From NCBI GenBank assembly GCA_016186825.1, contig JACPKW010000004.1, positions 64,428-128,427 on the forward strand: a stretch of DNA of 64,000 nt. The letters are read 5' to 3'. The notes below the pieces were generated by a model. It searched no databases and was not told where the DNA came from. It saw only the letters and a program-made list of their open reading frames with translations. The position numbers and the translations under genes were made by a program. The stretch is from Candidatus Giovannonibacteria bacterium (GTDB lineage: Bacteria > Patescibacteriota > Minisyncoccia > JACPKW01 > UBA11713). Below, piece by piece: positions 35,426-52,119 of this stretch (the first letter of the stretch is position 1; each line of letters starts with the position of its first letter).

Positions 35426-35860
35426 ATGAAATACATTATTTTATTATTGTTACTGGCTGCGGTCACGGTTTCTTTTATTTATTTCGGACGCGGCCGCCTG
35501 CAGACCGAAATTAAAGAAATTACGGTTGATAGCTATAAGCTAAAGGTGCAAGTGGCGCGCAGTGAAGCGGATTACGAAAAGGGCCTTCAGGACGTAAAAG
35601 ATCTCGGAGAGAACGAAGGCATGCTTTTCGTTTTTGATAAACCGCGGCAAGCTCTATTTTGGAATAAAAACACGCGGATTGATCTCGATGTGATTTGGAT
35701 CCAGAACGGGAACGTAGTCGGCTTTGGCTTTTTGCCCAAAGAAAGTTCACGCAAAACTTATCTGACTTCGCCAAGCCCTGTGGATATGGTTCTTGAGGTG
35801 AATGCCGGCTGGGCGGAACAGCATGATATTAAAAACGGATCGACAGTGGTCGGATACTGA
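35426..35860 (+). CDS. DUF192 family protein (paralog of 909..1424)
   Basis: GMLFVF...IDLDVIWI...MVLEVNAGW mirrors the motifs of the first copy. Confidence 0.55.
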   Translation: MKYIILLLLLAAVTVSFIYFGRGRLQTEIKEITVDSYKLKVQVARSEADYEKGLQDVKDLGENEGMLFVFDKPRQALFWNKNTRIDLDVIWIQNGNVVGFGFLPKESSRKTYLTSPSPVDMVLEVNAGWAEQHDIKNGSTVVGY

Positions 35861-35940
35861 TTATTATTCTAGAATATAAACGTCCGGTGTGTCCCAAGTT
35901 GTGCCGGACGGTCGAAGAAAAATATAGGAGATTTTTATCT

Positions 35941-36102
35941 ATGTGGCAGAACTGGGTAACCGGTATTTTAGGCCTTTGGGTCATTTTAATCCCTTTTTTG
36001 GGGATGGAGCCTATTCGGCAAAATGTCCTGATCGTAACAGGAGTAGTAATCGCCGTATTGGGTTTTTGGTCTGCTTCAGGATCAAAAACGGAGGGAATGT
36101 AA
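35941..36102 (+). CDS. small two-TM membrane protein (53 aa from internal Met)
   Basis: TATAGGAG SD-like upstream of MWQNWVTGILGLWVILIPFLG. Confidence 0.3.
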   Translation: MWQNWVTGILGLWVILIPFLGMEPIRQNVLIVTGVVIAVLGFWSASGSKTEGM

Positions 36103-36185
36103 ATTCCCATTGATCCGTTTTTGGAAACCTCCGAAGACCCCGTTATTAAGCCGTTTTCCTTTTTAAGCTTTTTAAGAACGTGAGT

Positions 36186-36319
36186 TTCTAACGGGGAAGC
36201 GAAGGCGTTTTTGCATTGTTTACCCCGTTAGAGAACTCGTGCGGGGCATTAAACCACGCACTCGCATTAAAATACTAAAACCCTCGCGGCAAGCCTCGAG
36301 GCATTCTCTAACGGGGTAA
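36186..36319 (+). promoter_or_regulatory. candidate cis-regulatory RNA leader with three copies of TTCTCTAACGGGG / CCCCGTTAGAGAA motif allowing alternative hairpins
   Basis: Copy 2 (inverted) can pair with copy 1 or with copy 3, which abuts the start codon at 36323; the same motif pair occurs at 6425/6506. Confidence 0.35.
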
Positions 36320-36322
36320 AAA

Positions 36323-37567
36323 ATGTTTAACTACGATTATTTGATTATTGGCGGAGGAATTGCTGGAACGACTGCGGCGGAAACTTTGCGTAAAAATGAT
36401 TCGGCGGCAAAAATCGCCATTTTGGAAGATGAAAAACATCTTTTGTATTCGCGGGTTTTTCTTCCCAGATTCGCAATGGGGGAGATAGGTTTGGATAAAG
36501 TAATGCTTCGCACTCTCAATGATTATGAAAAGAACAACATCGACATTTTTCTTTCGGAACGTGTAGTGAAAATAGATTTTGAGAAAAAAACTGCTGATAC
36601 TGATTCAGGAAAAAATTTTTCATACAAAAAACTTCTGATTGCCTCCGGCGGGCGTGCGGAGGAATGGCAATTTTCAGACGGCATAAAAGACAAAGTCTAT
36701 CGCCTGCAAACATTGGATGATGCGCTGGGCCTCAAATCTTTATTCGAGCAAAAACCTCATGGAAAAGTGCTGGTGGTGGGCGGGGGTTTAATAACGCTTG
36801 AATTTCTGAATATTTTTTCCAAATACGGCTGGGAAATCACTCTTTTGATGCGCGAACGCTTTTTTTGGAACGGCCTTGTAGAGGAGCGCGGCGGCGAGCT
36901 TTTTAATAAAATTTTTTTGCGAGGAAAAATAAATGTTATTGCTGGCGATGAGGTGCATGCAATTAAAGCTGAAGAAAACATTTTAGCGGTCCGGACGAAA
37001 GGCTCAAAAATTTTACATGCTGACGCGATCGCGGTCGGAGTGGGACTGAAAAGAAACCTGGAATTTGCGCGAGGACTAAGCACTGCGAGCGGAATAAAAG
37101 TGGATAATTACTTAAAAGCGGGTGACGGTGTCTGGGCGGCGGGAGATGTCGCGGAATATGTGGATCCGTTTTCAGGAAAATCTAAAACAATCGGAAACTG
37201 GACACATGCTTTTTTAACCGGCCGGATCGCAGGAATAAATATGGCGGGCTCGCCCGCTAAGGCAGGCGACGAAGAATTCAGATCGACCGCATCTTATTCC
37301 ACTGAAGTTTTAGGTGCGGTAATAACAATCATCGGGGAAATCGCTTTGCCCGAAGCTGAAACATTTGTGTCACTGGATGAAGTCAGCGATAAGTATTCAA
37401 GGTTTTTTCTTAAAAACGGGCGTTTGATCGGCGCTTTTCTCGTAAATAGTCAGCAAATAAAGCCTTTTGCGGCGAAACTGATCGAATCTGAAAAAAATGT
37501 TTCAGGCAGAGAAAATTTACTCTTTTACGAAAGCGGCCTCAAGGAATTGCTTCGAGATGACACCTAA
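36323..37567 (+). CDS. FAD-dependent pyridine nucleotide-disulfide oxidoreductase (NAD(P)H oxidase/ferredoxin reductase-like)
   Basis: Two Rossmann motifs IIGGGIAG and VVGGGLITLE, C-terminal dimerisation region. Confidence 0.75.
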   Translation: MFNYDYLIIGGGIAGTTAAETLRKNDSAAKIAILEDEKHLLYSRVFLPRFAMGEIGLDKVMLRTLNDYEKNNIDIFLSERVVKIDFEKKTADTDSGKNFSYKKLLIASGGRAEEWQFSDGIKDKVYRLQTLDDALGLKSLFEQKPHGKVLVVGGGLITLEFLNIFSKYGWEITLLMRERFFWNGLVEERGGELFNKIFLRGKINVIAGDEVHAIKAEENILAVRTKGSKILHADAIAVGVGLKRNLEFARGLSTASGIKVDNYLKAGDGVWAAGDVAEYVDPFSGKSKTIGNWTHAFLTGRIAGINMAGSPAKAGDEEFRSTASYSTEVLGAVITIIGEIALPEAETFVSLDEVSDKYSRFFLKNGRLIGAFLVNSQQIKPFAAKLIESEKNVSGRENLLFYESGLKELLRDDT

Positions 37568-38747
37568 GTTCGCTGAATTTAAGAAAAAAGTCAGGTGGCG
37601 CTTTTGGGCATTACTTGCGGCTATATTTACTGTGGCTGGCGGAATTATTTTCGGCGCAAAAAACATGGCAACTGAATTTGTAGAGCCCCTTGAGTATGTT
37701 GCGCGCGCTATCGACAATCTCCCGCTTTTGCAAAAAGAACCAGCGACGCAGCATTTATCAACTCCTGCGATTGTCCGCGGCATTTACATCTCGAGCTGGG
37801 TTGCTGGCACGGCTTCATGGCGGAAAGACCTTGTGAGCTTCGTTGAAAATTCAGAATTGAACAGCGTTATAATAGACGTCAAAGATTCAACGGGAAAGGT
37901 TTCTTTTATTTCTGACAACGAAAAATTGAAGGCGCTTGGCTATTTCGAAAAAAGAATTCCCGAAATTAGAAAAGTAATAAATGAACTCCACGAAAAAAAT
38001 ATTTATGTAATCGGGCGGATTGCAGTTTTCCAGGATGGAATTTTGGCGCTCAAGCGCTCTGATCTTGCAATCAAGAGAAAATCGAACGGAAATCTTTGGG
38101 GGGATAAAAAAGGGCTTGCGTGGGTGGACCCTGCTTCGAGGGAAACATGGGAGATCGCGGCGCTTGTAGCGAAAGAAGCCGAAAAAGTCGGATTCGATGA
38201 AATCAATTTCGATTATATTCGCTTTCCTTCTGACGGCGATCTTTCGGATATGTCATTTCCGTTTTGGGACGGAAAAACTTCTAGGTCTGGGGTTATCGAA
38301 AACTTTTTTGAGTATTTAAAAAACGAACTCGGAACGCTCGGGGTTCCGATATCGGCAGATTTATTTGGCCTTACGAGCTGGAATTATGACGATTTGAAAA
38401 TTGGGCAAACTTTGGAAATTGCCGCAAAACATTTCGATTATGTCTCACCGATGATGTATCCATCGCATTATCCCGCCGATTTTCAGGGATTTAAAAATCC
38501 TGCCGCTCACCCGTATGAGGTTATCAAAACGGCTTTGACGCGTGCGAAAGCACGGATTATCGCGATTGGAGAGCGTCCGGAAAAACTGCGCCCGTGGATT
38601 CAGGACTTCGATCTCGGAGCGAAATACGACGCTTCCATGATTAAACTCCAGAAACAGGCGATCTATGATGCGGGGCTCGGTTCGTGGCTTTCATGGGATC
38701 CTGCGAATAAATACACGCGGGATGGATATGACCCTGTTAGAAATTAG
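37557..38747 (+). CDS. membrane-anchored putative glycoside hydrolase (DUF4015/GH-like TIM barrel)
   Basis: N-terminal TM; VRGIYISSW...IIDVKD...YVIGRIAVFQD...WVDP...FDEINFDYIRFP pattern resembles the GHL10/DUF4015 family; start overlaps upstream stop by 11 nt. Confidence 0.45.
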   Translation: MTPKFAEFKKKVRWRFWALLAAIFTVAGGIIFGAKNMATEFVEPLEYVARAIDNLPLLQKEPATQHLSTPAIVRGIYISSWVAGTASWRKDLVSFVENSELNSVIIDVKDSTGKVSFISDNEKLKALGYFEKRIPEIRKVINELHEKNIYVIGRIAVFQDGILALKRSDLAIKRKSNGNLWGDKKGLAWVDPASRETWEIAALVAKEAEKVGFDEINFDYIRFPSDGDLSDMSFPFWDGKTSRSGVIENFFEYLKNELGTLGVPISADLFGLTSWNYDDLKIGQTLEIAAKHFDYVSPMMYPSHYPADFQGFKNPAAHPYEVIKTALTRAKARIIAIGERPEKLRPWIQDFDLGAKYDASMIKLQKQAIYDAGLGSWLSWDPANKYTRDGYDPVRN

Positions 38748-38844
38748 CAGGTCTTGAAGTTGCGCGCGAAAAGGAGATTTTTAACGCGGCAAAGATGTGC
38801 ATAAGCCGATTTAAAAGTGGCTCGGGATTGCGTATTATTAATAC

Positions 38845-39081
38845 ATGGATAAGCGTGAGAAGATTCAATTGATTTTTGCGATACTTGCTTCGCTGCTTGT
38901 GGGATATGTCGCGGGTTATTATGTTATTTCAGACGAAACTGAAAAAATTCAGTCGGAACTTACAAGTTACAAAGAGCGGGAGCGTGCACTTGATACTTTG
39001 AGTGCGCCAATTCGCGGTGCAAATGTCAGCTCCAAAGTTTTGGACTCATTAACAGCTCCGTCAGCCGGCGAGAGCCGTTAG
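38845..39081 (+). CDS. hypothetical membrane-anchored protein (78 aa)
   Basis: Single N-terminal TM helix. Confidence 0.3.
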   Translation: MDKREKIQLIFAILASLLVGYVAGYYVISDETEKIQSELTSYKERERALDTLSAPIRGANVSSKVLDSLTAPSAGESR

Positions 39082-39104
39082 CTATTAAAAATAATTTTTA
39101 AACC

Positions 39105-39689
39105 ATGAAAAAATTCACGGGAGATTTAATAAAAGTGACTGCTCTTGCGGGAGTGCTTATGGTGGTACAGGTTTTTGCATGGGATGAACCGACCCAGGCG
39201 CCTCCGGGAGGGAATGCTCCCGCGCCCTTGAATGTGAGCTCAATCGGGCAAACGAAAGCCGGCGGGTTATTGCTCAATACCGCAGGAGCGGACAACGGTT
39301 TGCTGGTTGATAAAGGAAATGTTGGAATCGGGACGCTCAACCCTTTGCAAAAACTGCATGTTGTAGGCGGTAAGGCGCAGGCGGATGATTTCTGTTTGAA
39401 CAGCGATCCCGCGAAATGTTTGTCAGGTTCAGGCGGCGGAGGCGGGGGAGGGGTTGGCCAGAAGATGTGCATTGCGAGCCACAGCGGGGACAACTGGTTT
39501 GTGACTATGCAGGTGCCATCAAGTTGGACGATTGCAGACTGCAAGAAAACAGTAAATATGAGCGCGCATCCTTTTAACGCCGCAAATCGCTACCAGGTGG
39601 GTTGCGTTTTTGCGAATTCCGTTTCAGTTGGGCCGATTGTTTCCCAGTCTGGAAATGCTGCGGCACCATCGCCGAACTGCGGCTGGTAA
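39105..39689 (+). CDS. secreted Gly-rich protein with NVGIGT...KLHV motif (tail-fibre/pilin-like)
   Basis: Signal peptide, G9 tract, 6 Cys. Confidence 0.4.
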   Translation: MKKFTGDLIKVTALAGVLMVVQVFAWDEPTQAPPGGNAPAPLNVSSIGQTKAGGLLLNTAGADNGLLVDKGNVGIGTLNPLQKLHVVGGKAQADDFCLNSDPAKCLSGSGGGGGGGVGQKMCIASHSGDNWFVTMQVPSSWTIADCKKTVNMSAHPFNAANRYQVGCVFANSVSVGPIVSQSGNAAAPSPNCGW

Positions 39690-39712
39690 TATTTTAAAAA
39701 TTAATTTATTCC

Positions 39713-40516
39713 GTGATTTTCAGATATAAATTTTTTCGGATTCCGGTAATTATGCTCGCGCTCGCTTTTTTTGCGCTGGTTTATTTTGTAAGCGCGGGCA
39801 GCGCTGATGATCTTTCAGGGTGGGCTTGGTCTGAAAATATCGGCTGGATCAGTTTTAATTCTGTGAATTTGAATAGGGGCGCGAACTACGGAGTTCGCAT
39901 CAGCAACTCTGGAAATCTTTCAGGTTATGCTTGGTCTGAAAATATCGGCTGGATAAGTTTTAACGAAAATTCCGGATGTCCGAAGTCGCCTTGCGTCCCG
40001 AGATTAAACCGCGACACTGGTGAGGTTTCGGGATGGGCGCGTGCGCTTTCCGCTGATAATAAAGGGTGGGATGGATGGATAAGTTTCCGTGGCTCGGGAT
40101 ACGGCGTTACTGTATCAAACTGCCTTTGGGATGGCTGGGCTTGGGGGTCAGATGTTGTCGGCTGGGTTCATTTCAAAGGAGCTGGATACGGTGTGGCTGC
40201 TAAAGACCAAGGCTGTATCGAAGAGCCTCTGCCACCTCCGCCACCGCCTCTGGTGTGTCCTTCTGGACAAGTGCGCCCGCATCGAACTTGCGAGGACGAG
40301 GTCTGCAAATTGGTTGATTCATGCGGAGTTTCTTCGTGCACTTCATCTTCCGAATGCAAGCCCAAAAAAGTTACCCAATGCTCGGATGGCATTGATAACG
40401 ATGGGGATGCAAAAGTTGATTATCGAACTTCACCGCTTCGTGCGGGACGCCCGAGCGATCCAGGCTGCTCCTCCCTCGAAGACGACAATGAGCGAAATTT
40501 GATTATTGAGATTTGA
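39713..40516 (+). CDS. secreted Trp-rich repeat protein with C-terminal MopE-like Cys/Asp motif; 3' end remodelled by cassette insertion
   Basis: Repeats SGWAWSENIGWISFN x2 plus degenerate copies; CSDGIDNDGDAKVDY...DPGC; the last 8 codons differ from the predicted ancestral end. Confidence 0.5.
   Translation: MIFRYKFFRIPVIMLALAFFALVYFVSAGSADDLSGWAWSENIGWISFNSVNLNRGANYGVRISNSGNLSGYAWSENIGWISFNENSGCPKSPCVPRLNRDTGEVSGWARALSADNKGWDGWISFRGSGYGVTVSNCLWDGWAWGSDVVGWVHFKGAGYGVAAKDQGCIEEPLPPPPPPLVCPSGQVRPHRTCEDEVCKLVDSCGVSSCTSSSECKPKKVTQCSDGIDNDGDAKVDYRTSPLRAGRPSDPGCSSLEDDNERNLIIEI
40446..40491. repeat. 46 bp direct repeat (copy 1) = target-site duplication of HicAB cassette
   Basis: GACGCCCGAGCGATCCAGGCTGCTCCTCCCTCGAAGACGACAATGA, identical at 41096-41141. 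Confidence 0.85.
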
Positions 40517-40576
40517 TTGGCTAAAACTTTTTTTGTGACGGTTGACCGTCCTTGATCGTTGTAATAAGGTATTTCT

Positions 40577-40807
40577 ATGGCGAAGACAAAAAAACAATTC
40601 ACCGCCATTTATAAAAAAGCCGGGGGATGGTATTTGGGATGGATTGAAGAAATTCCCGGAGTCAACAGCCAAGGCAAAACGCTTCGAGAAGTTAAAAATA
40701 ATCTCAAAGAGGCCTTAACGCTTATAATTGAAACAAATAAAGCGCTTTTGTCCAAAGATGAGCCTTCCGGCAAAAGAATTCGAGAAGTGCTCTCGGTTTC
40801 TGTTTAA
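40577..40807 (+). CDS. hicB: HicB-family antitoxin (UPF0150)
   Basis: GWYLGWIEEIPGVNSQGKTLREVKNNLKEALTLIIE matches HicB N-terminal fold. Confidence 0.6.
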   Translation: MAKTKKQFTAIYKKAGGWYLGWIEEIPGVNSQGKTLREVKNNLKEALTLIIETNKALLSKDEPSGKRIREVLSVSV

Positions 40808-40815
40808 TTTGTTTT

Positions 40816-41013
40816 TTGATGAGGCGCGCTGACTTAATCCGTCATTTAGTAAAAGAGGGTTGTATTTTTGTTCGCGAAGGGGGTAGTCATAGCGTATTTT
40901 TTAATCCAGCAACTAGGCGTTCATCAACTGTACCGCGGCATAATGAAATTCATTACTTTTTGGCTCGAAAAATTTGCCGTGACTTGGGGATAAGAGAGCT
41001 TAGAAAAAAATAA
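40816..41013 (+). CDS. hicA: HicA-family mRNA interferase toxin
   Basis: LVKEGCIFVREGGSHSVFFNP...TVPRH with the GSH signature of HicA/YcfA. Confidence 0.75.
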   Translation: MMRRADLIRHLVKEGCIFVREGGSHSVFFNPATRRSSTVPRHNEIHYFLARKICRDLGIRELRKK

Positions 41014-41095
41014 TCTCATGCAGTTACCTTTTTGCGCTAATTGTCTCATAACATTAATACAAGAAAACTTCGAACGGAAATTTTATCTATTATCA

Positions 41096-41141
41096 GACGC
41101 CCGAGCGATCCAGGCTGCTCCTCCCTCGAAGACGACAATGA
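41096..41141. repeat. 46 bp direct repeat (copy 2)
   Basis: Identical to 40446-40491; in the host-gene frame this copy continues ...DDNEKF-stop. Confidence 0.85.
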
Positions 41142-41162
41142 AAAATTTTAAGAAGAAGAGGT

Positions 41163-42788
41163 TTAATCAATTCTTTCTAGACAGTAAACCTCGTTTGCAT
41201 CCGTAGAGACAAAATATCTTTTTGTGTTTTCATTATAAACTACTTTTTGAGTAATTTTTTCAGTGACCTGGAAAACTCTTGTTGCTTTTCCAGTTTCCGG
41301 ATTGAATTCATATAAAGTTCCTCCATTAGAGCCCACATAAACATTTCCATCAATAATATTTGGGGTTGCTATAATTCTGCCACTCGTTGCAAACTGCCAT
41401 TTCATTTCTCCGGTTCTTAAATCAAAACAGTAAATATTTTTGTCTGTGGATGTAAAATAAACTTTGCTGTCTCTTACAACCGGACTCGAATAAATAATAT
41501 CTTCTGTTTTAAATTTTCCAATAACGTTTCCCGTATCAAGATCCAATGCATATTCGTTTTTATCAAATGAACCAAAGAGGAGAAGATTTGTTTCAATGTC
41601 GAATGCAAGGGAAGCTTTTATTTCGCCTCCTGTTTCATATTTCCAAAGAAGTGTTCCATTTTTCGCATTGAATAAATAAACTGTATTATCATTTCCTCCG
41701 ATCGCAACAATTTGTTTTTCTTTGCAATAAGCCGGTGAGCAGTGCACATATTCCGGCACTTTATAATCCCAAATTTTTTCTCCGGTATCCATCTTCAAAG
41801 CGGCGATTCCTCCCTTTCTTTTGAAAAGTCCAAACTCTAGTCCTATGAATACCAAATTTAAATCTGGCGCAAGAGCGGGCGATGAACCGATCCAGTCTGC
41901 TTCAGAATATTTCCAAATAATCTTTCCGTCTTTCGCATTCTGGCAGTAAAAATTACCATCGTAAGAGCCGAAATATATCATTTTTTTATTTATTGCAGGT
42001 GAAGAAAAGATACTTTTACCCATTGAAGGATAGCCAACTTTATATTTCCAAGCCACCGAACCGTCATTTTGATTTATGGCCCATAAAAATCCGTTATCAC
42101 TTCCGAAATAAATTTTTTCATTGTCCATGCACGGTGTTGATTTCGGTACAACGTGAAAAAGATTTGCATCAGGGGCCTGAAATTTCCACATAATTTTGAA
42201 TCTTTCTTGGGGAGTAAATCTTTTTTTAGGACTCATTGAAAGCCCGAAGTCTTTTAACGAGAAAAGATAGGTCAAATTAATATTTCTTTTTTTAATAAAA
42301 TCGAAATCATCATTTCCGCTGAAATTCATTATTGGAAAGATGCGGGAAACAATTTTTCCCGTTTCTTCTATAATCCGGATTTGACGCAGAAAAGTTGATC
42401 CGCTATTTATTATATCGTCAACTAAAATAATCGGCGTGTTATCCAATTCTCCTTCAATCAATTTTTGGAGTCCTATGCTTTTGCGAGCTTTTCTGATCAT
42501 AAAACCGTTTACTGGTTTGCCGATCTGATGGGAACGAAGAACAATGGCTCCAATTAACGGCACGGCGGCTAATTCTTGGCCTCCGACTTGAAATGGATAT
42601 TCTTTTTCAAATTTTTCCCAAAAAATATCAACGATTAAATCAAGCGCCTCGGGCTTTAAAAAAATATTTCTTAAATCAAACAGCCAATTTTCTCGTTCAC
42701 CAGTTGGAGAAATGATTATATGGGTTTTTGAAGTGGGAAGAGCGTCCCTTTTAATAATATTTTTAAGCTTTTCTAATTTTTGTTCCAC
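41163..42788 (-). CDS. fusion protein: orotate-PRTase-like (type I phosphoribosyltransferase) N-domain + 8-bladed PQQ/BamB-like beta-propeller
   Basis: GKPVNGFMIRKARKSIG...PIILVDDIINSGST matches PyrE motifs; C-terminal repeated YFGSxDGxLxAxxxxDGxxxWKY blades; start overlaps SagB-like gene stop. Confidence 0.6.
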   Translation of the reverse strand: MEQKLEKLKNIIKRDALPTSKTHIIISPTGERENWLFDLRNIFLKPEALDLIVDIFWEKFEKEYPFQVGGQELAAVPLIGAIVLRSHQIGKPVNGFMIRKARKSIGLQKLIEGELDNTPIILVDDIINSGSTFLRQIRIIEETGKIVSRIFPIMNFSGNDDFDFIKKRNINLTYLFSLKDFGLSMSPKKRFTPQERFKIMWKFQAPDANLFHVVPKSTPCMDNEKIYFGSDNGFLWAINQNDGSVAWKYKVGYPSMGKSIFSSPAINKKMIYFGSYDGNFYCQNAKDGKIIWKYSEADWIGSSPALAPDLNLVFIGLEFGLFKRKGGIAALKMDTGEKIWDYKVPEYVHCSPAYCKEKQIVAIGGNDNTVYLFNAKNGTLLWKYETGGEIKASLAFDIETNLLLFGSFDKNEYALDLDTGNVIGKFKTEDIIYSSPVVRDSKVYFTSTDKNIYCFDLRTGEMKWQFATSGRIIATPNIIDGNVYVGSNGGTLYEFNPETGKATRVFQVTEKITQKVVYNENTKRYFVSTDANEVYCLERID

Positions 42789-42789
42789 T

Positions 42790-43536
42790 CTATTGTAATT
42801 TGCCTAAAACTGATAAGTGAACTGTTGATTCTTCTTCATTGTCAATATCCAGCATTAGTTCTATTTTTTCATTTGAATAGCCAGCTAAATGGCAGCACCC
42901 TATGTTCAAAGCCGAGCTGATAAGCGCAATATTTTGCATTAAATGCCCTGATTCATTTAAAACGATTTTATATCCGAAGTCTTTGTATTTGATAAAATTT
43001 CTGTCCCAAACTGACGTAAGGATAACAAAAAGAGCTGCGTCCTTTGACCATGGATAAAACATAGCTTCTTTAATAATTTTTATTCCTTCAGATTCAATCA
43101 GCTCTTCAAGCGCATGTTTTTTTACATTGTAGTGATAAATGCCTCTGTCTAAATCAGTTACATTTTGTGCTCCGATATAAATTTCTAAGGGGTATCGTGA
43201 CCCGCCTGAAGGATAGAATCTTTTTGATCCATTCCATTCCCCATTATCCGGAATTTTTCTGATTCCGCCCCCGAAATATAGAAGAGTCGAAAGTTCTTCA
43301 AATGTAATCGGTTTATTGCTGAATTCTCTTGTTGAATGGCGGTTTTTAAGGGCAGATTCTAAATTTCCAAGCTCTAAAAAATTCCATGATAAAGGAATCA
43401 AATTTAATCGAGGATATTCTTTGAAATACACTGTTTTCCAGGATTTCGGCCAAGTTTTCGGGTCGCTAGGCCCAGTCCCGGATTTAAATTTAAAATTTAT
43501 TTCTTTATGAAATAATTTTGAGAGAGCTCCAATCAT
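42790..43536 (-). CDS. SagB/McbC-type (nitroreductase-fold) dehydrogenase of azole RiPP pathways
   Basis: NRHSTREF and YPSGGSRYPLEIY motifs; 4 nt overlap with YcaO gene. Confidence 0.75.
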   Translation of the reverse strand: MIGALSKLFHKEINFKFKSGTGPSDPKTWPKSWKTVYFKEYPRLNLIPLSWNFLELGNLESALKNRHSTREFSNKPITFEELSTLLYFGGGIRKIPDNGEWNGSKRFYPSGGSRYPLEIYIGAQNVTDLDRGIYHYNVKKHALEELIESEGIKIIKEAMFYPWSKDAALFVILTSVWDRNFIKYKDFGYKIVLNESGHLMQNIALISSALNIGCCHLAGYSNEKIELMLDIDNEEESTVHLSVLGKLQ

Positions 43537-45005
43537 GGAAAAGGATGAGGTTCTTGATTTAATGTTAGCGCGGCTTTATATCCCATTTTTTCAGGGATTT
43601 CTTTCAGGCGTTTGCCTCCGAAATATGGGATTGACTCGTTTAAGTGCATTGGCTGGAGTTCAGAAATAATTACTTTTGCGCTAAAAATTCCAAGCTTTTC
43701 AATTTCAGGTGTAGTTATTTTAACATAACAAGCTTCATAATTTTTTTTGCTTAATTCATCTGATAGGATTTTTAATTTTTCCTTGAAATACTCTTGTGTT
43801 TCTCTCAACTCGAACATTCGTTTTTTCAGATCTATCTTCACTTTTTCTCCGCTAAATATGAATTCTATTTTGTTCAAATTTTCTGGCCTGGACCAATAAA
43901 TTAATCTTTCTTCTCGTCCTATTTGTTTTTCATTTATATCATTTTTGAATTTTCTTTTTAATGAATAACGAACTATTAATGCTTCTGACAACGAATCGAT
44001 TATTGCTTGCTTAAAGTCAAAATCAGCGCTCGCACCTACACAAAAAGCAGGGCCTAATCCTGTTCTATCGAGTATTACGGCGAGGTAGATATGAACGGGA
44101 AAATCGCTCGGGAGTCGAACTATGTATGGTTCGAGCCTATATCGCTGAAAGTTTTTAATTATTGCATTTATTTCCTCATCTTGAGCACTGACGTAATCTA
44201 GATCGACAACTTCGGGCGATAATTTATTTAAATAGGTGATCATAAATGCATCTCTTTCGATAACTTCCATAATTCCTTTCACTATAGCTTCAACCATGTT
44301 TCTACCCGAGGCTAACCCTGTTGTTATGCACCATCTAAGAAGCGGTTCTTTTCGATTTTGTGTCGGGCTTAATCTTTGATTTCTATAAGCAAAGTTGGAG
44401 CTTGCAAGCTGAAGAGGGCAATACATTTTTTCGTTGCCCTGAACTGAAAAAGCCTCGAGCCACCTAAGCTCTGTCTGAGTATTAAATTTGAGATTCGATA
44501 AATTACTTTTTTGCTCTTCCGAAAAACCGGCAAGTTTAAATATATTTAATGCCTTGCCTTTCAAATCTTCATAATTGCTTTCAACTGAATTTTTCAGCAA
44601 ATGGTCTGAACTGGACCAAAGTGATCGTTCAACTCCTTCTGCGGTCGCGCGCCATATCGCCTTCACTTCGTTATTGAATTCCACTCCTGTGCCTAATTTT
44701 ATATTGCTTTCTTTGTTGCTATTCACGTTGTAAATATATATGAAAGGTTCATCTGGATAACGTCTCCCCTTTTTTATATTTTCTATTATTCCCATTGACT
44801 GAAGTTGGTACAGAGTATCAATGGCAACCAGCATCTCTTGACTTTTGTCAGCTAAAGTATCAGGGATTTTAACTAAAAGTTCAGAGCCAAAATATTTTTC
44901 AAGGTTTTTTAATAAAAACTTGGGCCATATAGAGAAAATCCCACCCTTATTAGGTTTTTTTAGGAAATCTTCGGCTTTTTTAGTAATTTCAAGTTTTTTT
45001 CCCAT
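43533..45005 (-). CDS. ycaO: YcaO-domain cyclodehydratase (TOMM D protein) with C-terminal PxPxP motif
   Basis: TGLASGRNMVEAIVKGIMEVIERDAF YcaO signature; C-terminus ...QEPHPFP. Confidence 0.8.
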   Translation of the reverse strand: MGKKLEITKKAEDFLKKPNKGGIFSIWPKFLLKNLEKYFGSELLVKIPDTLADKSQEMLVAIDTLYQLQSMGIIENIKKGRRYPDEPFIYIYNVNSNKESNIKLGTGVEFNNEVKAIWRATAEGVERSLWSSSDHLLKNSVESNYEDLKGKALNIFKLAGFSEEQKSNLSNLKFNTQTELRWLEAFSVQGNEKMYCPLQLASSNFAYRNQRLSPTQNRKEPLLRWCITTGLASGRNMVEAIVKGIMEVIERDAFMITYLNKLSPEVVDLDYVSAQDEEINAIIKNFQRYRLEPYIVRLPSDFPVHIYLAVILDRTGLGPAFCVGASADFDFKQAIIDSLSEALIVRYSLKRKFKNDINEKQIGREERLIYWSRPENLNKIEFIFSGEKVKIDLKKRMFELRETQEYFKEKLKILSDELSKKNYEACYVKITTPEIEKLGIFSAKVIISELQPMHLNESIPYFGGKRLKEIPEKMGYKAALTLNQEPHPFP

Positions 45006-45129
45006 TTACACACCTATAGTAGTTGTGGCTTCTAAATTAAATGTCTATTATTAAATTGTGCTGATAACTTCAATATAGATAGGTTTAATTTACATTAGCG
45101 TCTTAAAAAAGGGAAGCCGTGGTTTTTAC

Positions 45130-46269
45130 GTGATTGACTCAATAAATCAAAAGAAAATAGGCGCACTAGATATAAAAAATATATTATTATTAGTTATTAT
45201 TTTAATAATAGGAGTATTCTTGTACACTAATTTTTCTTTAAAACCCGATTTAAAACCCGATTTTCAGCAAGCTTTATCTCAGGCAGCAGAGCTGAGAGAT
45301 ATAGATTCCAAAAAAGCTGCTGAGAAATTTGAGATCGCACTTGCTTTGGCAAAAACCCCCGAACAAAAAGCTATTGCTAAATTATTCATTGCAAATAATT
45401 ATTTGGATGTTGAGCCTGCAAAGGGGATGAAGCTTTTAAAAGAGATTGTGGCAGATAATTCTATGCCTTCGATGCAACGTGCTTTTGCAATACAATTTAT
45501 TGCGGATAAATATATGCTGGGTTTACATTCTACGAAATTTGCTCGAGAAAATATTTTCAATGATTCTCCTTTCGATTCGTTTATTTTACCTGGTAATGAT
45601 AAAGATACAGATGCTGCGAATATAATATTGAAAGACCGAGTTGGCATTAGAAAAATTTATGAATTTGCCACAGATACTTTCCCCATTCCGGTCGCGAATT
45701 TTTGGGTAGCAGAATGGCATGCAAGAAGAGTGTTAATGTCAAACGAATATTCAAACTTGCCACTAGTTGAAGAAAGAGTGGAATATATCAAGAAAACTAA
45801 AGAATATATTGAAAAAGGTGATTTGGCGCTACCTGCTTTTATTTTGCATGAAGGTGAAAACAGTCAAGTGGCTTACGCTTATTGGGTGAAGGGATTAGCG
45901 CTCGGGTATCTTTATGAACTAGAAAAAAAATCTGAGTTACAAATTGAAGCGGAAGAAAGCTTTACAAAAGCATTGCAGATTCTGAAAAGTGGTTCGACTG
46001 ATTATATGAAATTACAATCCCTTTGGGCTAGTTTCTATTATGCTGATTTTCTTGCAACAAGTTTTGGTGTTGACAAAAAGCTTGAAGTTAAGAAAAGTCT
46101 TTCATATATTATGGAGCCACGTTTTTTTAATGATTTCGTTTTTTTGAAATATTTAAGGGTTGTAAAAGATGATAAAGACAGCTATACCCGAAAAAGAATA
46201 ATGCGATTGACTGAGCAGAATGTAGAATTCAAAGATTTTTTAATACGTTTAGGATGGGAGTTCAATTAG
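45130..46269 (+). CDS. hypothetical membrane-anchored alpha-helical protein (379 aa), cluster-associated
   Basis: N-terminal TM helix; no Cys; possible immunity or scaffold role (inference only). Confidence 0.35.
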   Translation: MIDSINQKKIGALDIKNILLLVIILIIGVFLYTNFSLKPDLKPDFQQALSQAAELRDIDSKKAAEKFEIALALAKTPEQKAIAKLFIANNYLDVEPAKGMKLLKEIVADNSMPSMQRAFAIQFIADKYMLGLHSTKFARENIFNDSPFDSFILPGNDKDTDAANIILKDRVGIRKIYEFATDTFPIPVANFWVAEWHARRVLMSNEYSNLPLVEERVEYIKKTKEYIEKGDLALPAFILHEGENSQVAYAYWVKGLALGYLYELEKKSELQIEAEESFTKALQILKSGSTDYMKLQSLWASFYYADFLATSFGVDKKLEVKKSLSYIMEPRFFNDFVFLKYLRVVKDDKDSYTRKRIMRLTEQNVEFKDFLIRLGWEFN

Positions 46270-46297
46270 TAAATTTTATTTTGCAACAAATAAAAAT

Positions 46298-46648
46298 ATG
46301 GGAGTCATAAAAAAACCAACTCGCAAGATCATTTCTCTAATACTTCCTGTCTTGAGCATTTTGGGTTTGGCTTTAATGAAAATACCCAAAGGCGAATATC
46401 ATTTAAGGGAGGCTGACAGAAAAATTTCTAAACTCTTTAAAATTGATAACTTTGCAGTTAATGAAGTTAATGCTGATATTGTCGAAGGCGGTTCCGGCGG
46501 AGATGGTGGTGGTTCTGTAAGTGATGACGGTTCTGGTGGTTGCGGAAGTGGCGGTTGCGGTTCTGGCGGAGATGGTGGAGGTACTGATGGCGGATGTGAT
46601 GCGGGAGATGGTGGTGATGACAGTGGCGACGACGGCGACGGCAAGTAA
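46298..46648 (+). CDS. candidate TOMM precursor peptide with Gly/Ser/Cys/Asp-rich core (microcin B17-like)
   Basis: C-terminal 50 aa GGSGGDGGGSVSDDGSGGCGSGGCGSGGDGGGTDGGCDAGDGGDDSGDDGDGK; alternative start at 46376 would give a soluble 38 aa leader. Confidence 0.5.
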   Translation: MGVIKKPTRKIISLILPVLSILGLALMKIPKGEYHLREADRKISKLFKIDNFAVNEVNADIVEGGSGGDGGGSVSDDGSGGCGSGGCGSGGDGGGTDGGCDAGDGGDDSGDDGDGK

Positions 46649-46667
46649 ATAATTTTTTTTCTCTTTA

Positions 46668-48089
46668 TTGAAAAGAATTTCTTTTTCTTTGTATTTTATT
46701 ATATGGAAAATCATGGAAAATTGTACTGAAGATCTAATAATAAGACCTGAAAAATCATTCAAACCTAGTATAAATTTTTCAAATCTTCTTGGAAATTCTC
46801 ATTTCGCAGAAAATTTAGAACCAATAATAAGTTCTCTCCGCGAATCGCAGTATTGGCCATTATCAAAGTTGGAGCAGATTCGCGAAGAGCGATTTCGAAA
46901 TTTATCTCATGATATTCGATCTTCTAAATTTTGGAGTGAATATTTCAAGAAATATGCAATTTCTACTTCTTCAAGTGAGGTATCAGAAGAATTATTAAAA
47001 TTTCCTGTTATTAATCGAAATGACTTCAGGAACTGGGGTAAGAATGTCTTTATTTATCAAAAAGATTTAAATATATTCAAAACTATTACAAGTGGGACAA
47101 GCGGGACTCCTTTAGAAATTATTCTGGACAAAAAAACTGCATCTATTGCTTATTTTTCCTTTTTCTTCAGAAATCCAATTTTTGAAAAAATTGATTTAGG
47201 TATATTGAATAGAAAATTTATTGTTAGTTTGGGAAACCATGGTTTAAGAAGATGGTTTAGGGATTTTATTTATCTATTTTCCATTTCTCCATCAGATCTT
47301 GAAAAAAAAGAAGTTCGCCAGAAAATATATAAACAGTTTGAAAAAATACCTGATGGAATGCTCGGAGGGTTTGCGTCTGTTGTCTTGAAGTTCGCTGAAT
47401 ATGCCGCCGATGAAAAAATAAAATTTCCGGGTCTATCTGCGATTAAAATCAGCAGTGAAGGGATTGGTTTGAATGATAGAACTTTTATTGAAAAGACTTT
47501 TGGCGCTCCTGTCCTGAATGAATTGAATTGTTCTGAAGCTGGCATGATTGGGTTCGAATGCCCTGAAAACCTTGGAAAATTTCATCTTAATGCTGAAAGA
47601 ATAATCATGGAGATTGTTGGAGAAAACAATGAAGCATTAGGGAAAAATAAAGAAGGTAAAATTATAATCACAGCCTTGGACCGTATAGCGATGCCTATAA
47701 TTCGTTATGAAATAGGAGATCGTGGAAAATTACTTTCTGAAATTTGTCGTTGTGGAAGAACTCTGCCATTGTTTGAATTTACTGGTCGTCAAAACAATAG
47801 TTTAATTTTTTCTGACGGGAAAAAAATTCGTTCAATTATAATACAAAGTGCATTAATCAAAAGTGGTTTGGCGAAAAAATGTAATTTCATCCAACTAAAG
47901 CAGCTAAATCCATACGATTTCCAATTCACAATTATTCCTTCACCTCTCTATTCCAAAGAGGATGAAACAAAAATAAGGGTGATTCTAACAAATCTTACGG
48001 AAAACAGAAAAATAAAAATTGATTTCGAATATAAAAACATTTCCGATTTAAAAAATAATAAACCATCTTTTTTTGTTCCTTTGCAATAA
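46668..48089 (+). CDS. PaaK/CapK/F390-synthetase-family adenylate-forming enzyme
   Basis: TSGTSGTPL AMP-binding motif, IRYEIGDRG; table start is TTG, probable ATG at 46713. Confidence 0.55.
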   Translation: MKRISFSLYFIIWKIMENCTEDLIIRPEKSFKPSINFSNLLGNSHFAENLEPIISSLRESQYWPLSKLEQIREERFRNLSHDIRSSKFWSEYFKKYAISTSSSEVSEELLKFPVINRNDFRNWGKNVFIYQKDLNIFKTITSGTSGTPLEIILDKKTASIAYFSFFFRNPIFEKIDLGILNRKFIVSLGNHGLRRWFRDFIYLFSISPSDLEKKEVRQKIYKQFEKIPDGMLGGFASVVLKFAEYAADEKIKFPGLSAIKISSEGIGLNDRTFIEKTFGAPVLNELNCSEAGMIGFECPENLGKFHLNAERIIMEIVGENNEALGKNKEGKIIITALDRIAMPIIRYEIGDRGKLLSEICRCGRTLPLFEFTGRQNNSLIFSDGKKIRSIIIQSALIKSGLAKKCNFIQLKQLNPYDFQFTIIPSPLYSKEDETKIRVILTNLTENRKIKIDFEYKNISDLKNNKPSFFVPLQ

Positions 48090-48092
48090 AAA

Positions 48093-48122
48093 AGAGGAGC
48101 GATGTTACAAATCGCTCCCCCT
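48093..48122. terminator. bidirectional hairpin between convergent genes
   Basis: GGAGCGATGTTACAAATCGCTCC stem-loop flanked by A-run and C/T-run. Confidence 0.5.
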
Positions 48123-48142
48123 TAGAGCTCCGTCGGCAGATG

Positions 48143-48760
48143 CTAATTGCGGCGAGCAATATCCGGACTTCGGTTGCCGGAGTTAATGAGTTCGATCTCC
48201 CTTGTTCCACCAGGAGATCCTCGAGAAAAGCTCTCCATTCTGTACTTCGCGATGACCTTTTTGCTTTCGCAGTAATAATAGGTCATTTTGAGTTCGATGG
48301 ATCGAGCACTCTCCGTCCTCGAGAGCTTTATCGCACTGCAGTTGCCGGCGGCCGTAGAAATGTTTTCCGTCCCGACGATTGCAGTGCCTGTTTCCATGCG
48401 GGTGCTCCTCGGACTGGTCGGCCTCATATAATTTCCATCCCATTTATCAGCGAGTGGAAATTTTAAGAGGTCTTTTCCTGTTCCAGGCAACATATCTTGG
48501 AGCACGTAGACCTCTTGCCCGTTGGTGTCGAGGGGAACTTCCCGATTCTTAGATCTGTCGAGCCAAAAAAAGGAGAAACTCGAACCATCATACACGGCGA
48601 GGTATTCCTCACCGTTCATGACAGCCATTTCCTTCCTAACGAAGTCCTTTTCGACGACCTTGAAGACCCAGAAGTCTCCCGAGTTGTAGCTCGGTTGCGC
48701 ATGAGCAAACGAGGTTAAGGCCGCTAAAGCAATGACGACGAAAAAAAACTTTATTTTCAT
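48143..48760 (-). CDS. secreted hypothetical protein (205 aa)
   Basis: Signal peptide MKIKFFFVVIALAALTSFAHA. Confidence 0.45.
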   Translation of the reverse strand: MKIKFFFVVIALAALTSFAHAQPSYNSGDFWVFKVVEKDFVRKEMAVMNGEEYLAVYDGSSFSFFWLDRSKNREVPLDTNGQEVYVLQDMLPGTGKDLLKFPLADKWDGNYMRPTSPRSTRMETGTAIVGTENISTAAGNCSAIKLSRTESARSIELKMTYYYCESKKVIAKYRMESFSRGSPGGTREIELINSGNRSPDIARRN

Positions 48761-48869
48761 ATATTGGCCCCTCCTAATGGCCTTTGTTAAACTATGAAAA
48801 TCATAGCTTAAAACGAAAATTTTGTAAAGAGCCTTTGCTTTCGTGCTATAATTTTAACATAAAAACGGT

Positions 48870-49694
48870 ATGGAAAGTTTTAGCAAAAAAGATATTCTGA
48901 TTTCTTTAATTTTTTTACTGTTTTTAGGATTTTTTACGTTCCAAGATGATTTCTCTGGAATTGCATGGGGGAAGTATAAAAATGCAGATTTTGCCCTGGC
49001 GCTCAATGGAAATAATGCAAAGCTCGCATATGAAATTGGAGATTATTATTTCAACGGGCGTGCATGTGTTGAAACAGCCGGAAAAGGATGCTATGACCTG
49101 GAGAAAGCGGAGGCGGGATATAAAAAAGCGATTTCGATAAACCCGAAATTTGAACGCGCGCATTATCAGCTTGCGAGGATTTATTTTGTTAAAGGCGAGC
49201 GGGAGCGAGCGATGAAAGAAATTAATTTGGAACTCGAATATTATCCCGATTACAAGCGGTCTTATTACGTGCGCGGGCTTATAAACGGCTATGACGGCAG
49301 GTTGGAAGCTGCGGAAAAAGATTTTCTCGAATTTATTTCTTGGGCGCCTTACGAATGGGGAGGATATAACGATCTTGCATGGATTCTCTTGAAATCAAGC
49401 AAATACGAGCAAGCAAAAGAAATTGCGCTTGCGGGATTAAAATATCCGAGCACCCGAGATAACCCCTGGCTTTTGAATGCTTTAGGAGCGTCAGAGCTTA
49501 ATTTAAGGGATTATGATTCTGCAAAAAGTACTTTCGAAAAAGTCAGCGAAATTCTCATGGATTTTCCAGAAAGCGAATTTGAGAAAGCTTATCCGGGTAA
49601 TAATCCGCTATCAGTCGGGGCTGGGCTTACGGCATTCAAAACCGCCGTTTTAGAAAATTTAAAAAAAAGCGAGGAAGGGACGCGCAGGGATTAA
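48870..49694 (+). CDS. TPR-repeat protein, membrane-anchored
   Basis: N-terminal TM; repeated Ala/Tyr/Leu 34-residue-like helices (AHYQLARIYF..., YYVRGLI...). Confidence 0.5.
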   Translation: MESFSKKDILISLIFLLFLGFFTFQDDFSGIAWGKYKNADFALALNGNNAKLAYEIGDYYFNGRACVETAGKGCYDLEKAEAGYKKAISINPKFERAHYQLARIYFVKGERERAMKEINLELEYYPDYKRSYYVRGLINGYDGRLEAAEKDFLEFISWAPYEWGGYNDLAWILLKSSKYEQAKEIALAGLKYPSTRDNPWLLNALGASELNLRDYDSAKSTFEKVSEILMDFPESEFEKAYPGNNPLSVGAGLTAFKTAVLENLKKSEEGTRRD

Positions 49695-49712
49695 AAGGGG
49701 TGTTAATAACCT

Positions 49713-51726: not shown

Positions 51727-52119
51727 ATGTCGAGTCAGTCTTTTTTTCTGAAGCCCTCATTCCAAAGAGATGTTTTTCGGATTGTCATCGGAATATTTAT
51801 CGTATCTTTGATCTTGCTCGGGCTTTCTTATCTCCCGTTTAGGAGTTCTATTACTTCAGCGGAACCCATTTTCGGGACGATTACTTTTTTAGATGAGTAT
51901 CAGAAATTCATAAAAATTCAAGCGGATGGGAATCCTCCGAAAACGTGGGACGTTATGATCCGCGGCGTAAAAATAAACAAAGATACAGGCGGCAATGTTG
52001 AGGAAGGCGCAATGGGCGATTTTTTGATCGGCGCGAAAATAAAAATCACGGCGAAGCCCGATTCAGCTGATCCGGAGAATCACGTTATTACCCCGGATTT
52101 AATTACGATTATCAGATAA
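51727..52119 (+). CDS. hypothetical membrane-anchored protein (~130 aa)
   Basis: Internal Met start with TM helix RIVIGIFIVSLILLGLS. Confidence 0.35.
   Translation: MSSQSFFLKPSFQRDVFRIVIGIFIVSLILLGLSYLPFRSSITSAEPIFGTITFLDEYQKFIKIQADGNPPKTWDVMIRGVKINKDTGGNVEEGAMGDFLIGAKIKITAKPDSADPENHVITPDLITIIR

Follow-up and report, generated by a model that had tools for sequence, protein, structure and literature searches.

A phosphoribosyltransferase–propeller fusion beside YcaO and SagB genes in Candidatus Giovannonibacteria and its possible role in peptide modification

What might a phosphoribosyltransferase (PRTase) do when it is joined to a beta-propeller and encoded next to enzymes of azole formation? 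The question is raised by a stretch of 64,000 nucleotides from a Candidatus Giovannonibacteria bacterium (contig JACPKW010000004.1, positions 64,428 to 128,427; in the following "the window"), in which the gene at 41163–42788 on the minus strand encodes, from a GTG start codon, a PRTase-propeller fusion protein of 541 amino acids (FUS) directly downstream of the genes of a SagB-type dehydrogenase and a YcaO cyclodehydratase. We tentatively read FUS as a tailoring enzyme that has two domains, works in the cytoplasm and belongs to a widespread system that either resembles those of peptides that are made by ribosomes and modified after translation (RiPPs) or modifies membrane proteins; the propeller would dock the tail of the substrate and the PRTase domain would add phosphoribose. 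The observations behind this reading concern the architecture of the protein, the conservation of its catalytic residues, the size of its family, its synteny with a family of likely substrates, and its modular partners, which include a fused Asp beta-hydroxylase.

The ORF, the domain matches and the AlphaFold2 (AF2) and Foldseek results agree with an earlier, sequence-only reading of this DNA, according to which a PyrE-like PRTase is fused to an eight-bladed propeller of the PQQ/BamB type. That reading had also held that the combination is no standard enzyme, and indeed no curated Pfam or NCBIfam family spans the fusion. The full-length AF2 model has a predicted local distance difference test (pLDDT) score of 88, and its sole long disordered stretch, residues 102–108, is the flexible loop of the PRTase domain, a loop that is disordered in OPRT (orotate phosphoribosyltransferase) as well. 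A protein identical to the FUS of the window occurs in a Candidatus Giovannonibacteria metagenome-assembled genome (MAG), where it is annotated merely as "PQQ-binding-like beta-propeller repeat protein". The propeller comprises residues ~196–541 (41166–42203, minus strand), which match PQQ_2/Beta-prop_ACSF4 (PF13570, 214 bits) and also PF13360. Its sequence shows eight repeats, and in Foldseek searches the AF2 model of this part matched the designed eight-bladed protein Cake8 (TMt 0.94) and BamB structures (E ~1e-26 to 1e-28, TMt ~0.8); the predicted blade count of eight is confirmed by the model. Scores against the BamB model TIGR03300 (158.2 bits, cut-off 285.2) and the PQQ-dependent dehydrogenase model TIGR03075 (74.2 bits, cut-off 480.05) stayed below the cut-offs. 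FUS is probably cytoplasmic because it has no signal peptide, and it does not resemble a BamB-type periplasmic lipoprotein in this respect, nor in the position of its propeller behind a cytosolic PRTase domain.

The N-terminal domain (residues ~1–190; 42219–42788, minus strand) was assigned to the type I PRTases that resemble orotate phosphoribosyltransferase (OPRT) by means of profiles, the AF2 model and alignment. Residues 1–190 reached 58.3 bits with the pyrE model TIGR00336 (cut-off 106.8), far lower scores with other pyrE models, 22.7 bits with PRTase-CE (PF24390, cut-off 27) and 16.1 bits with PF00156 (cut-off 26.3). The sequence profile of the domain matched solved OPRTs in a search of PDB profiles (Mycobacterium tuberculosis 5hkf at E=1e-18), and a separate AF2 model of the domain (pLDDT 89.8) superposed best on solved OPRTs, with TM values of 0.76/0.84 for M. 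tuberculosis 5hki. The loop that binds phosphoribosyl pyrophosphate (PRPP), I120–T132, reads IILVDDIINSGST and has the two acidic residues followed by a Thr/Ser-Gly-x-Thr turn that characterize OPRTs. The flexible catalytic loop, R99-K100-A-R102-K103, aligns with the corresponding loop of the M. tuberculosis OPRT and shows the R-K-x-x-K pattern; this motif and the following IEG have the same residue numbers as in the Escherichia coli OPRT.

Conservation of these positions was determined in an alignment of 200 sequences, consisting of the window protein, 79 proteins from genome loci and 120 database proteins. In the catalytic loop, R99 was present in 200, K100 in 197, R102 in 198 and K103 in 195 sequences; behind it, E112 was found in 199 and G113 in all 200. 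The PRPP loop was conserved to a similar degree (D124, 200; D125, 199; N128, 188; G130, 195). The loss of PRPP-binding residues, which the sequence-only reading had named as the sign of a vestigial domain, is the opposite of what was found: both loops are essentially invariant among the 200 relatives, so that the domain is not a vestige. The family also has near-invariant residues of its own that OPRTs lack, namely E72 (199/200), Q67 and W35. In the column of OPRT Arg156 (Salmonella numbering), the Arg with which enterobacterial OPRTs contact orotate, the window protein has Ser157, and Arg occurs in just 147 of the sequences; the equivalence of the column rests on the alignment, on established structural work on OPRT and on the E. 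coli numbering. We read the domain as a PRPP-dependent transferase that is active and probably uses an acceptor other than orotate. An intact and strongly selected PRPP site makes plausible the phosphoribosyl-dependent tailoring step that had been suggested for this protein; that a peptide would serve as the acceptor goes a step further.

In the window, FUS belongs to six genes (41163–48089) with a GC content of 0.344, compared to 0.45 in both flanks and 0.419 in the next-lowest 7-kb window. Because of this low-GC island the six genes look like one acquired unit, and their composition suggests horizontal acquisition as one block. At the junction of FUS with the SagB gene the sequence is ...CAA TAG A GTG GAA..., with the stop codon TAG at 42792–42790, the start codon GTG at 42788–42786, and a 1-nt spacer between them. 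The two genes are adjacent and do not overlap as had been claimed earlier. It is the stop codon of YcaO that overlaps a start codon, that of SagB (ATGA, 43536–43533). A gap of 0–25 nt between SagB and FUS was also found in about 24 other genomes, and since this tight spacing recurs, the second part of the earlier claim, translational coupling of FUS to YcaO-SagB, is plausible.

FUS belongs to a large family. A database search yielded >120 full-length homologues with 49–61% identity, and relatives were detected in 389 species genomes in a scan that covered one genome per species. Some members are called OPRT in the annotation of the Joint Genome Institute (JGI). For the survey of gene neighbourhoods, 79 loci (L001–L079) were kept, in which ORFs were called and clustered and hidden Markov models were built. 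Most of these loci are from the candidate phyla radiation (CPR)/Patescibacteria; the rest are from Acidobacteriota (Bryobacterales, Terriglobia) and from single MAGs labelled Limnocylindrales (Chloroflexota), Nitrospirae and Bathyarchaeia. Metagenome contigs showed the same neighbourhood pattern as the genome loci. The sequence-only reading would have been refuted if the fusion occurred widely in unrelated surroundings that lack RiPP genes. The fusion does occur widely, but consistently in neighbourhoods that resemble those of peptide modification.

The best-known enzymes in these contexts are YcaO and SagB. The YcaO cyclodehydratase of the window (43533–45005, minus strand, 490 aa) was identified by PF02624 (157 bits) and reached 200.3 bits with TIGR03604 (cut-off 219.25). 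Its N-terminal extension of about 112–115 aa has no Pfam match. The protein ends in PHPFP, a PxPxP motif that is conserved in the alignment of its YcaO subfamily; a C-terminal PxPxP is typical of azoline-forming YcaOs. The SagB-type flavin mononucleotide (FMN) dehydrogenase (42790–43536, minus strand, 248 aa) scored 144.9 bits with TIGR03605 (cut-off 78.4) and also matched PF00881. YcaO is encoded in 32 and SagB in 33 of the 79 FUS loci, and this synteny, together with the single six-gene compositional island, bears out the earlier assignment of FUS to a peptide-modification cluster. The other 47 loci have no YcaO; they contain other maturases or, in Acidobacteriota, FUS as the only recognisable enzyme. 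For a reciprocal test, 80 metagenome loci were fetched with the alignment of the window YcaO subfamily. SagB was adjacent to YcaO in most of them, and FUS was present in about 18 of the about 42 loci that had ≥2.6 kb of downstream sequence, including all 8 of the closest YcaO relatives with enough flank. YcaO loci without FUS retained the same type of precursor gene and the c2 gene described below. As YcaO-SagB occurs in only ~40% of the FUS loci and related YcaO-SagB loci often lack FUS, FUS appears to be a separate tailoring module.

Common to these contexts is a candidate substrate, a precursor-like gene that had been overlooked in the sequence-only reading, as had the acidic Gly-rich tails that form the common denominator of the loci. 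In the window, the candidate precursor (46298–46648, plus strand, 116 aa) was recognized by its sequence and by an architecture that it shares with small ORFs of related loci. It has a K/R-rich N-terminus, a membrane helix, a V-N-A-D-I-V motif and a 55-aa tail, EGGSGGDGGGSVSDDGSGGCGSGGCGSGGDGGGTDGGCDAGDGGDDSGDDGDGK, with 4 Cys; several Ser/Thr accompany these Cys in the core, and the sequence reads ...VNEVNADIVEGGSGGDGGGSVSDDGSGGCGSGGCGSGGDGGGTDGGCDAGDGGDDSGDDGDGK. It was the one match of a strict tail filter in the 64-kb window, and ORFs with strictly defined acidic/Gly tails were present in 39/79 FUS loci. The precursors of the CPR loci have 65–150 aa and consist of a K/R-rich N-terminus, one membrane helix, a linker ending in V/T-A/V-H/N/S-A-D-V/A-P, and a tail composed of Gly, Asp/Glu, Ser/Ala and sometimes Cys, with GDGG, GEGS and DSGT repeats. 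Among 73 unique small tail ORFs, 68 contained a helix and 53 a helix followed by A-D/E. The charge distribution suggests an N-in/C-out topology, and the A-x-A-D motif would fit the −3/−1 rule of signal peptidase I. Opposite the precursor gene, in antisense, lies an ORF of 119 aa (46403–46762, minus strand) that is most likely no gene but an artefact of GGN/GAY-rich repeats.

The candidate substrates are not always small peptides. In L010 and L014 the motif and a Gly/Asp/Cys segment lie within proteins of 260–330 aa, and in Acidobacteriota and the Limnocylindrales MAG proteins of ~400 aa with Soli_cterm/TIG domains and a long terminal (GDGG)n tail are encoded directly beside FUS. Because of these internal segments and acidobacterial tails, the modified object may be a segment of a membrane or surface protein and not just a small peptide. 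The cores encoded beside FUS were more acidic than those of YcaO loci without FUS (D+E 0.17 vs 0.06, n=12 vs 6, p=0.02), a comparison that is weak evidence given its small sample and crude definition of the core. Cys-rich cores go with YcaO loci.

The second recurrent gene, c2 (45130–46269, plus strand), encodes a protein of 379 aa with an N-terminal membrane helix, tetratricopeptide repeats (TPR), which were recognized by matches to TPR proteins among PDB profiles, and an unassigned C-terminal domain; it has no match in Pfam or NCBIfam. Members of the c2 family are encoded in 36/79 FUS loci, and many of the YcaO loci that lack FUS have one as well. Translational coupling to c2 is usual for the precursor gene, and the gene order in the window is c2, precursor, PaaK-like gene. 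Judged from these sequences, the system would be defined by its substrates, which combine a membrane-anchored N-terminus, a V-A-H-A-D-(V/A)-P motif and an acidic, Gly-rich segment of low complexity, and by a TPR membrane partner. Precursor and c2 are its apparent core, with FUS, YcaO-SagB, c5, PaaK-like and radical S-adenosylmethionine (SAM) enzymes as interchangeable tailoring modules. Small proteins of 140–200 aa with signal peptides adjoin c2 in L023, L033, L057, L068 and L077.

The most informative of the other partners is an Asp/Asn beta-hydroxylase. All 16–17 FUS proteins of the Acidobacteriota and Limnocylindrales have three domains, the hydroxylase (PF05118, 50–60 bits, with HxD...H kept), the PRTase and the propeller; they are encoded in L059–L061, L063–L067, L069, L070, L072–L076, L078 and L079 (e.g., L072:9362–11620). 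Stand-alone Asp/Asn hydroxylases adjoin FUS in four CPR loci, with an overlapping stop and start in L010. The fused or adjacent hydroxylase and the Asp-rich tails point to Asp as the target residue.

The alternative partners of FUS comprise radical SAM/SPASM and B12-radical SAM enzymes, PaaK-like enzymes, YcaO-SagB and the membrane protein c5. In the window, the third gene of the plus-strand operon encodes an adenylate-forming enzyme of the PaaK/F390-synthetase/CapK type (46668–48089, plus strand, 473 aa; NF045666, 89.9 bits; TIGR03335; partial NCBIfam matches), relatives of which were found in 8 FUS loci and in L082, while some YcaO loci encode one as well. One alternative enzyme set consists of two PaaK-like enzymes, PurD and a methyltransferase; full-length PurD (GARS) lies inside such a block of FUS, PaaK-like, methyltransferase and precursor genes in L004 (5864–7138), L008 and L011, all from CPR. 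L010 carries a DegT aminotransferase, a methyltransferase and a short-chain dehydrogenase/reductase (SDR). An N-formyltransferase of the PurN type is fused to FUS in P0116. Like PurD, these neighbours and fusions handle sugars or ribotides. An AMMECR1 protein is fused to FUS in L010 (9995–13243, CPR) and adjacent to it in L041 (7981–9924) and L055 (7986–9791); its unannotated C-terminal part has weak matches to Glyco_hydro_88 and Pec_lyase.

The c5 family consists of polytopic membrane proteins of ~430 aa with many invariant Cys, His and Trp residues (L009:548–1864, L082:5942–7204 and 14 other loci). It often stands directly beside FUS where YcaO-SagB is absent, accompanied by a 67-aa membrane protein, a rhodanese, a DsbA-like thioredoxin and a DCC1-like protein. 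A relationship of c5 to HTTM proteins was considered and found no support in an hhalign comparison with an HTTM/DCC1 protein. Searches of Pfam, NCBIfam and PDB profiles gave no match for c5, for c6 and c16 of the Acidobacteriota, or for c14, c22, c23 and c41. L053 (2843–11638 and 14581–21583) and L041 each contain two complete modules of precursor, c2 and maturases next to one another, and that every module has a FUS copy to itself argues for a module-specific role of the protein; in L053 one module is equipped with c5 and the other with YcaO. Such modularity is the behaviour expected of tailoring enzymes that share a precursor family. Beside the acidobacterial-type cluster of L066 (7125–13472) lie genes of an ABC exporter with a C39 peptidase, a second ABC protein and a HlyD-type adaptor. 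C39-peptidase ABC exporters with HlyD are typical of secreted, leader-cleaved peptides.

How these elements may act together can be outlined as follows. The propeller would dock the acidic Gly-rich segment of the substrate prior to export, and the OPRT-like domain would move the 5-phosphoribosyl group from PRPP onto it, with the side chain of Asp or beta-hydroxy-Asp as the most plausible acceptor. In the window, this step would be joined to azole formation by YcaO/SagB at the four core Cys, and a putative adenylation step by the PaaK-like enzyme is also encoded. A more far-reaching version holds that PRPP-dependent phosphoribosylation of Asp or beta-hydroxy-Asp in acidic Gly-rich segments is a new post-translational modification that defines a class of modified peptides or surface proteins spanning phyla (CPR/Patescibacteria, Acidobacteriota and single MAGs of other phyla), with YcaO, radical SAM and adenylating enzymes as interchangeable co-tailoring modules; we regard this version as possible but doubtful.

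Several points weigh against the proposed function. We know of no biochemical precedent for a type I PRTase with a peptide acceptor, nor is a PRPP-dependent enzyme of this type acting on peptides described in the literature searched; the acceptor is purely our conjecture. The same search returned no paper on the PRTase-propeller combination and none that ties these domains to a function. As a whole, the propeller has a near-neutral net charge and shows no clear basic surface, although several of its conserved Lys and Arg residues fall in predicted top-face loops. No Asp hydroxylase was found in the window cluster. A strict tail ORF was missing from 40 of the 79 loci, of which many are short contigs and some (L010, L014) carry internal-segment precursors, and a relaxed detector for acidic Gly-rich segments had to be dropped in favour of the strict filter as it gave false positives at the FtsK and GyrB linkers of the window. 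The loci were picked by their similarity to FUS, and the synteny counts derived from them are not phylogenetically independent.

As main rival we consider the possibility that FUS makes a free ribotide from PRPP, for example phosphoribosylamine from ammonia in a PurF-like manner or a ribosylated base, which ATP-dependent ligases of the cluster (PaaK-like, PurD-like) would then attach to Asp or C-terminal carboxylates of the tail, the propeller just holding the peptide close by. This would agree with the presence of PurD, whose natural substrate is phosphoribosylamine, inside the conserved block of L004, L008 and L011, with the PurN-type formyltransferase fused to FUS in P0116, and with the PaaK-like adenylating gene that lies directly 3' of the window precursor and recurs elsewhere. 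We nevertheless judge it unlikely, for PurD and PaaK-like genes are both missing from most FUS loci, no recognisable enzyme other than FUS accompanies the (GDGG)n protein in Acidobacteriota, and a glutaminase or ammonia-channel domain is lacking.

The sequence-only reading had offered another role, in which the propeller replaces the missing E1-like partner with its RiPP recognition element (RRE), so that YcaO would receive the precursor from it for cyclodehydration. No E1-like (C protein) or Ocin-ThiF partner with an RRE was found among the ORFs of 35426–51719, and thus none in the island, by family searches that a cryptic RRE might escape; the short SagB-FUS gap in about 24 genomes and the presence of FUS with all 8 of the closest YcaO relatives that have enough flank also speak for such a role. 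It is contradicted by the distribution of the genes, as YcaO is missing in 47/79 FUS loci and FUS in ~24 of the ~42 subfamily YcaO-SagB loci with enough flank, which have the same precursor type and c2 all the same. The strictly conserved PRPP site and the fusion to the Asp hydroxylase would be left unexplained. The YcaO protein itself carries an N-terminal extension of 112 aa, and of its partners c2 is the more constant one. The substitution is accordingly abandoned as the likely function and rated improbable.

We assign an equally low probability to FUS being a non-catalytic scaffold, chaperone or immunity protein in which PRPP, sensed in the manner of PyrR or PurR, gates the binding and release of the acidic peptide. 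PRTase folds have been re-used as sensors, PyrR is among the sequence matches, and propellers are common scaffolds; yet the near invariance of R99, K100, R102 and K103 extends conservation beyond the PRPP-binding loop to the catalytic loop, and the fusions to the Asp hydroxylase and the formyltransferase suit an enzyme better. That FUS is an ordinary housekeeping OPRT with an extra domain is very improbable. Its nearest solved relatives are genuine OPRTs and the JGI label points the same way, but the score is under the pyrE cut-off, the Arg156 column, with Ser in the window protein, is variable across the family, the 79 loci are always peptide-modification neighbourhoods and never contain pyr genes, and the gene lies on a low-GC island and has paralogues duplicated per module. 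Least credible of all is an anti-phage or conflict effector such as the type III-A PRTase of retrons, ShosT or PRTase-CE of Pfam, since the sub-threshold matches in its favour (PF24390, 22.7 bits; PADLOC PRTase_III-A, 17.9; ShosT, 13.9) span just the generic PRPP loop, the four other island proteins that were submitted had no PADLOC match, and the neighbours are maturase and precursor genes with no retron or Shosta linkage seen.

The interpretation of FUS as a tailoring enzyme is set in the following genomic surroundings. The YcaO-SagB-FUS operon on the minus strand and the operon of c2, precursor and ligase on the plus strand diverge, according to the gene layout, from an intergenic region at 45006–45129; scans for promoters and terminators, which included this region, gave no more matches than expected by chance and were uninformative. 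Two genes of the c1 TPR family, which is represented in 40/79 FUS loci, lie outside the island and are possibly associated with it, one at 39713–40516 (plus strand, GC 0.50, assigned by c1 clustering) and one at 48870–49694 (plus strand, GC 0.41, with TPR Pfam matches and BLAST matches in 37 loci). At the left border of the island, just past the 3' end of FUS, a toxin pair of the HicB-like (UPF0150)/HicA type is encoded at 40577–41013. Beyond the other border, a strong terminator-like hairpin with a 13-bp stem (48091–48123, minus strand) lies between the end of the PaaK-like gene and a gene for a secreted-looking protein of 205 aa without a family match (48143–48760, minus strand). A Laminin_G_3 (concanavalin-like) protein is encoded near FUS both in the window (49713–51719) and in an unrelated metagenome contig (L083:8462–9931). 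Further downstream, a stretch of high GC content and high GC skew encodes a 790-aa protein (52119–54491) that has a membrane helix at its N-terminus and contains long GGxGG/GNGG repeats; this protein may be a Gly-rich surface protein and lacks the acidic-tail architecture. The sole Rfam matches in the window are tRNA genes at 442–512 and 589–663.

The FUS family suggests the existence of a large, undescribed system for the modification of peptides or proteins. If the proposed function is true, a nucleotide-salvage fold has been recruited to put phosphoribose on ribosomal peptides, a chemistry undescribed for RiPPs and for protein modification. The family would also be a handle on an apparently very common modification system of CPR/Patescibacteria, whose tiny genomes go along with a largely unknown surface and interaction biology, and it ties this system to a related counterpart in the Acidobacteriota of soil. 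Whatever the chemistry, the precursor family, the TPR partner and the mix-and-match maturase modules, which the searched Pfam and NCBIfam libraries do not contain, can be used for genome mining.

Among known enzymes, FUS is most similar to OPRT (PyrE) of the short actinobacterial type represented by M. tuberculosis 5hkf/5hki, with which it shares the type I fold, the PRPP loop VDDxxxxGxT and the flexible loop R-K-x-x-K followed by IEG. It differs by an additional 350-aa propeller, by scores under the cut-off, by the invariant Glu72 and Trp35, by the lack of conservation at the Arg156 position and by never being encoded beside pyr genes. With propellers of the BamB/YxaL type it has the eight-bladed fold of PQQ_2 repeats in common, but it is cytoplasmic and without a lipoprotein signal or evidence of PQQ binding. 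ACSF4 (AASDH) is another protein in which such a propeller is joined to a catalytic domain, and PF13570 is the best Pfam match of FUS. The AspH family (PF05118), whose members act on peptides or proteins and which in Acidobacteriota is fused to FUS with its HxD...H motif beside Asp-rich candidate substrates, is not represented in the window cluster and serves as a clue to the target residue only. At the level of the gene cluster, the window resembles those for thiazole/oxazole-modified microcins (TOMMs) and linear azole-containing peptides (LAPs), such as microcin B17 (McbBCD) and streptolysin S (SagBCD), in having a PxPxP YcaO, SagB and a nearby peptide with a Gly/Ser/Cys-rich core. In contrast to these clusters it lacks an E1-like C protein, a membrane helix and the A-x-A-D motif form part of the leader, the core is strongly acidic, the PRTase-propeller, the membrane TPR protein and the PaaK-like enzyme are additional, and YcaO-SagB is optional in the wider system. 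Peptide-nucleotides of the microcin C type and glycocins also consist of a ribosomal peptide with a group derived from a sugar or nucleotide. They are functional analogues only, as their systems use ThiF-like adenylation or enzymes of glycosyltransferase (GT) families with nucleoside diphosphate (NDP)-sugars, unlike the PRTase of FUS.

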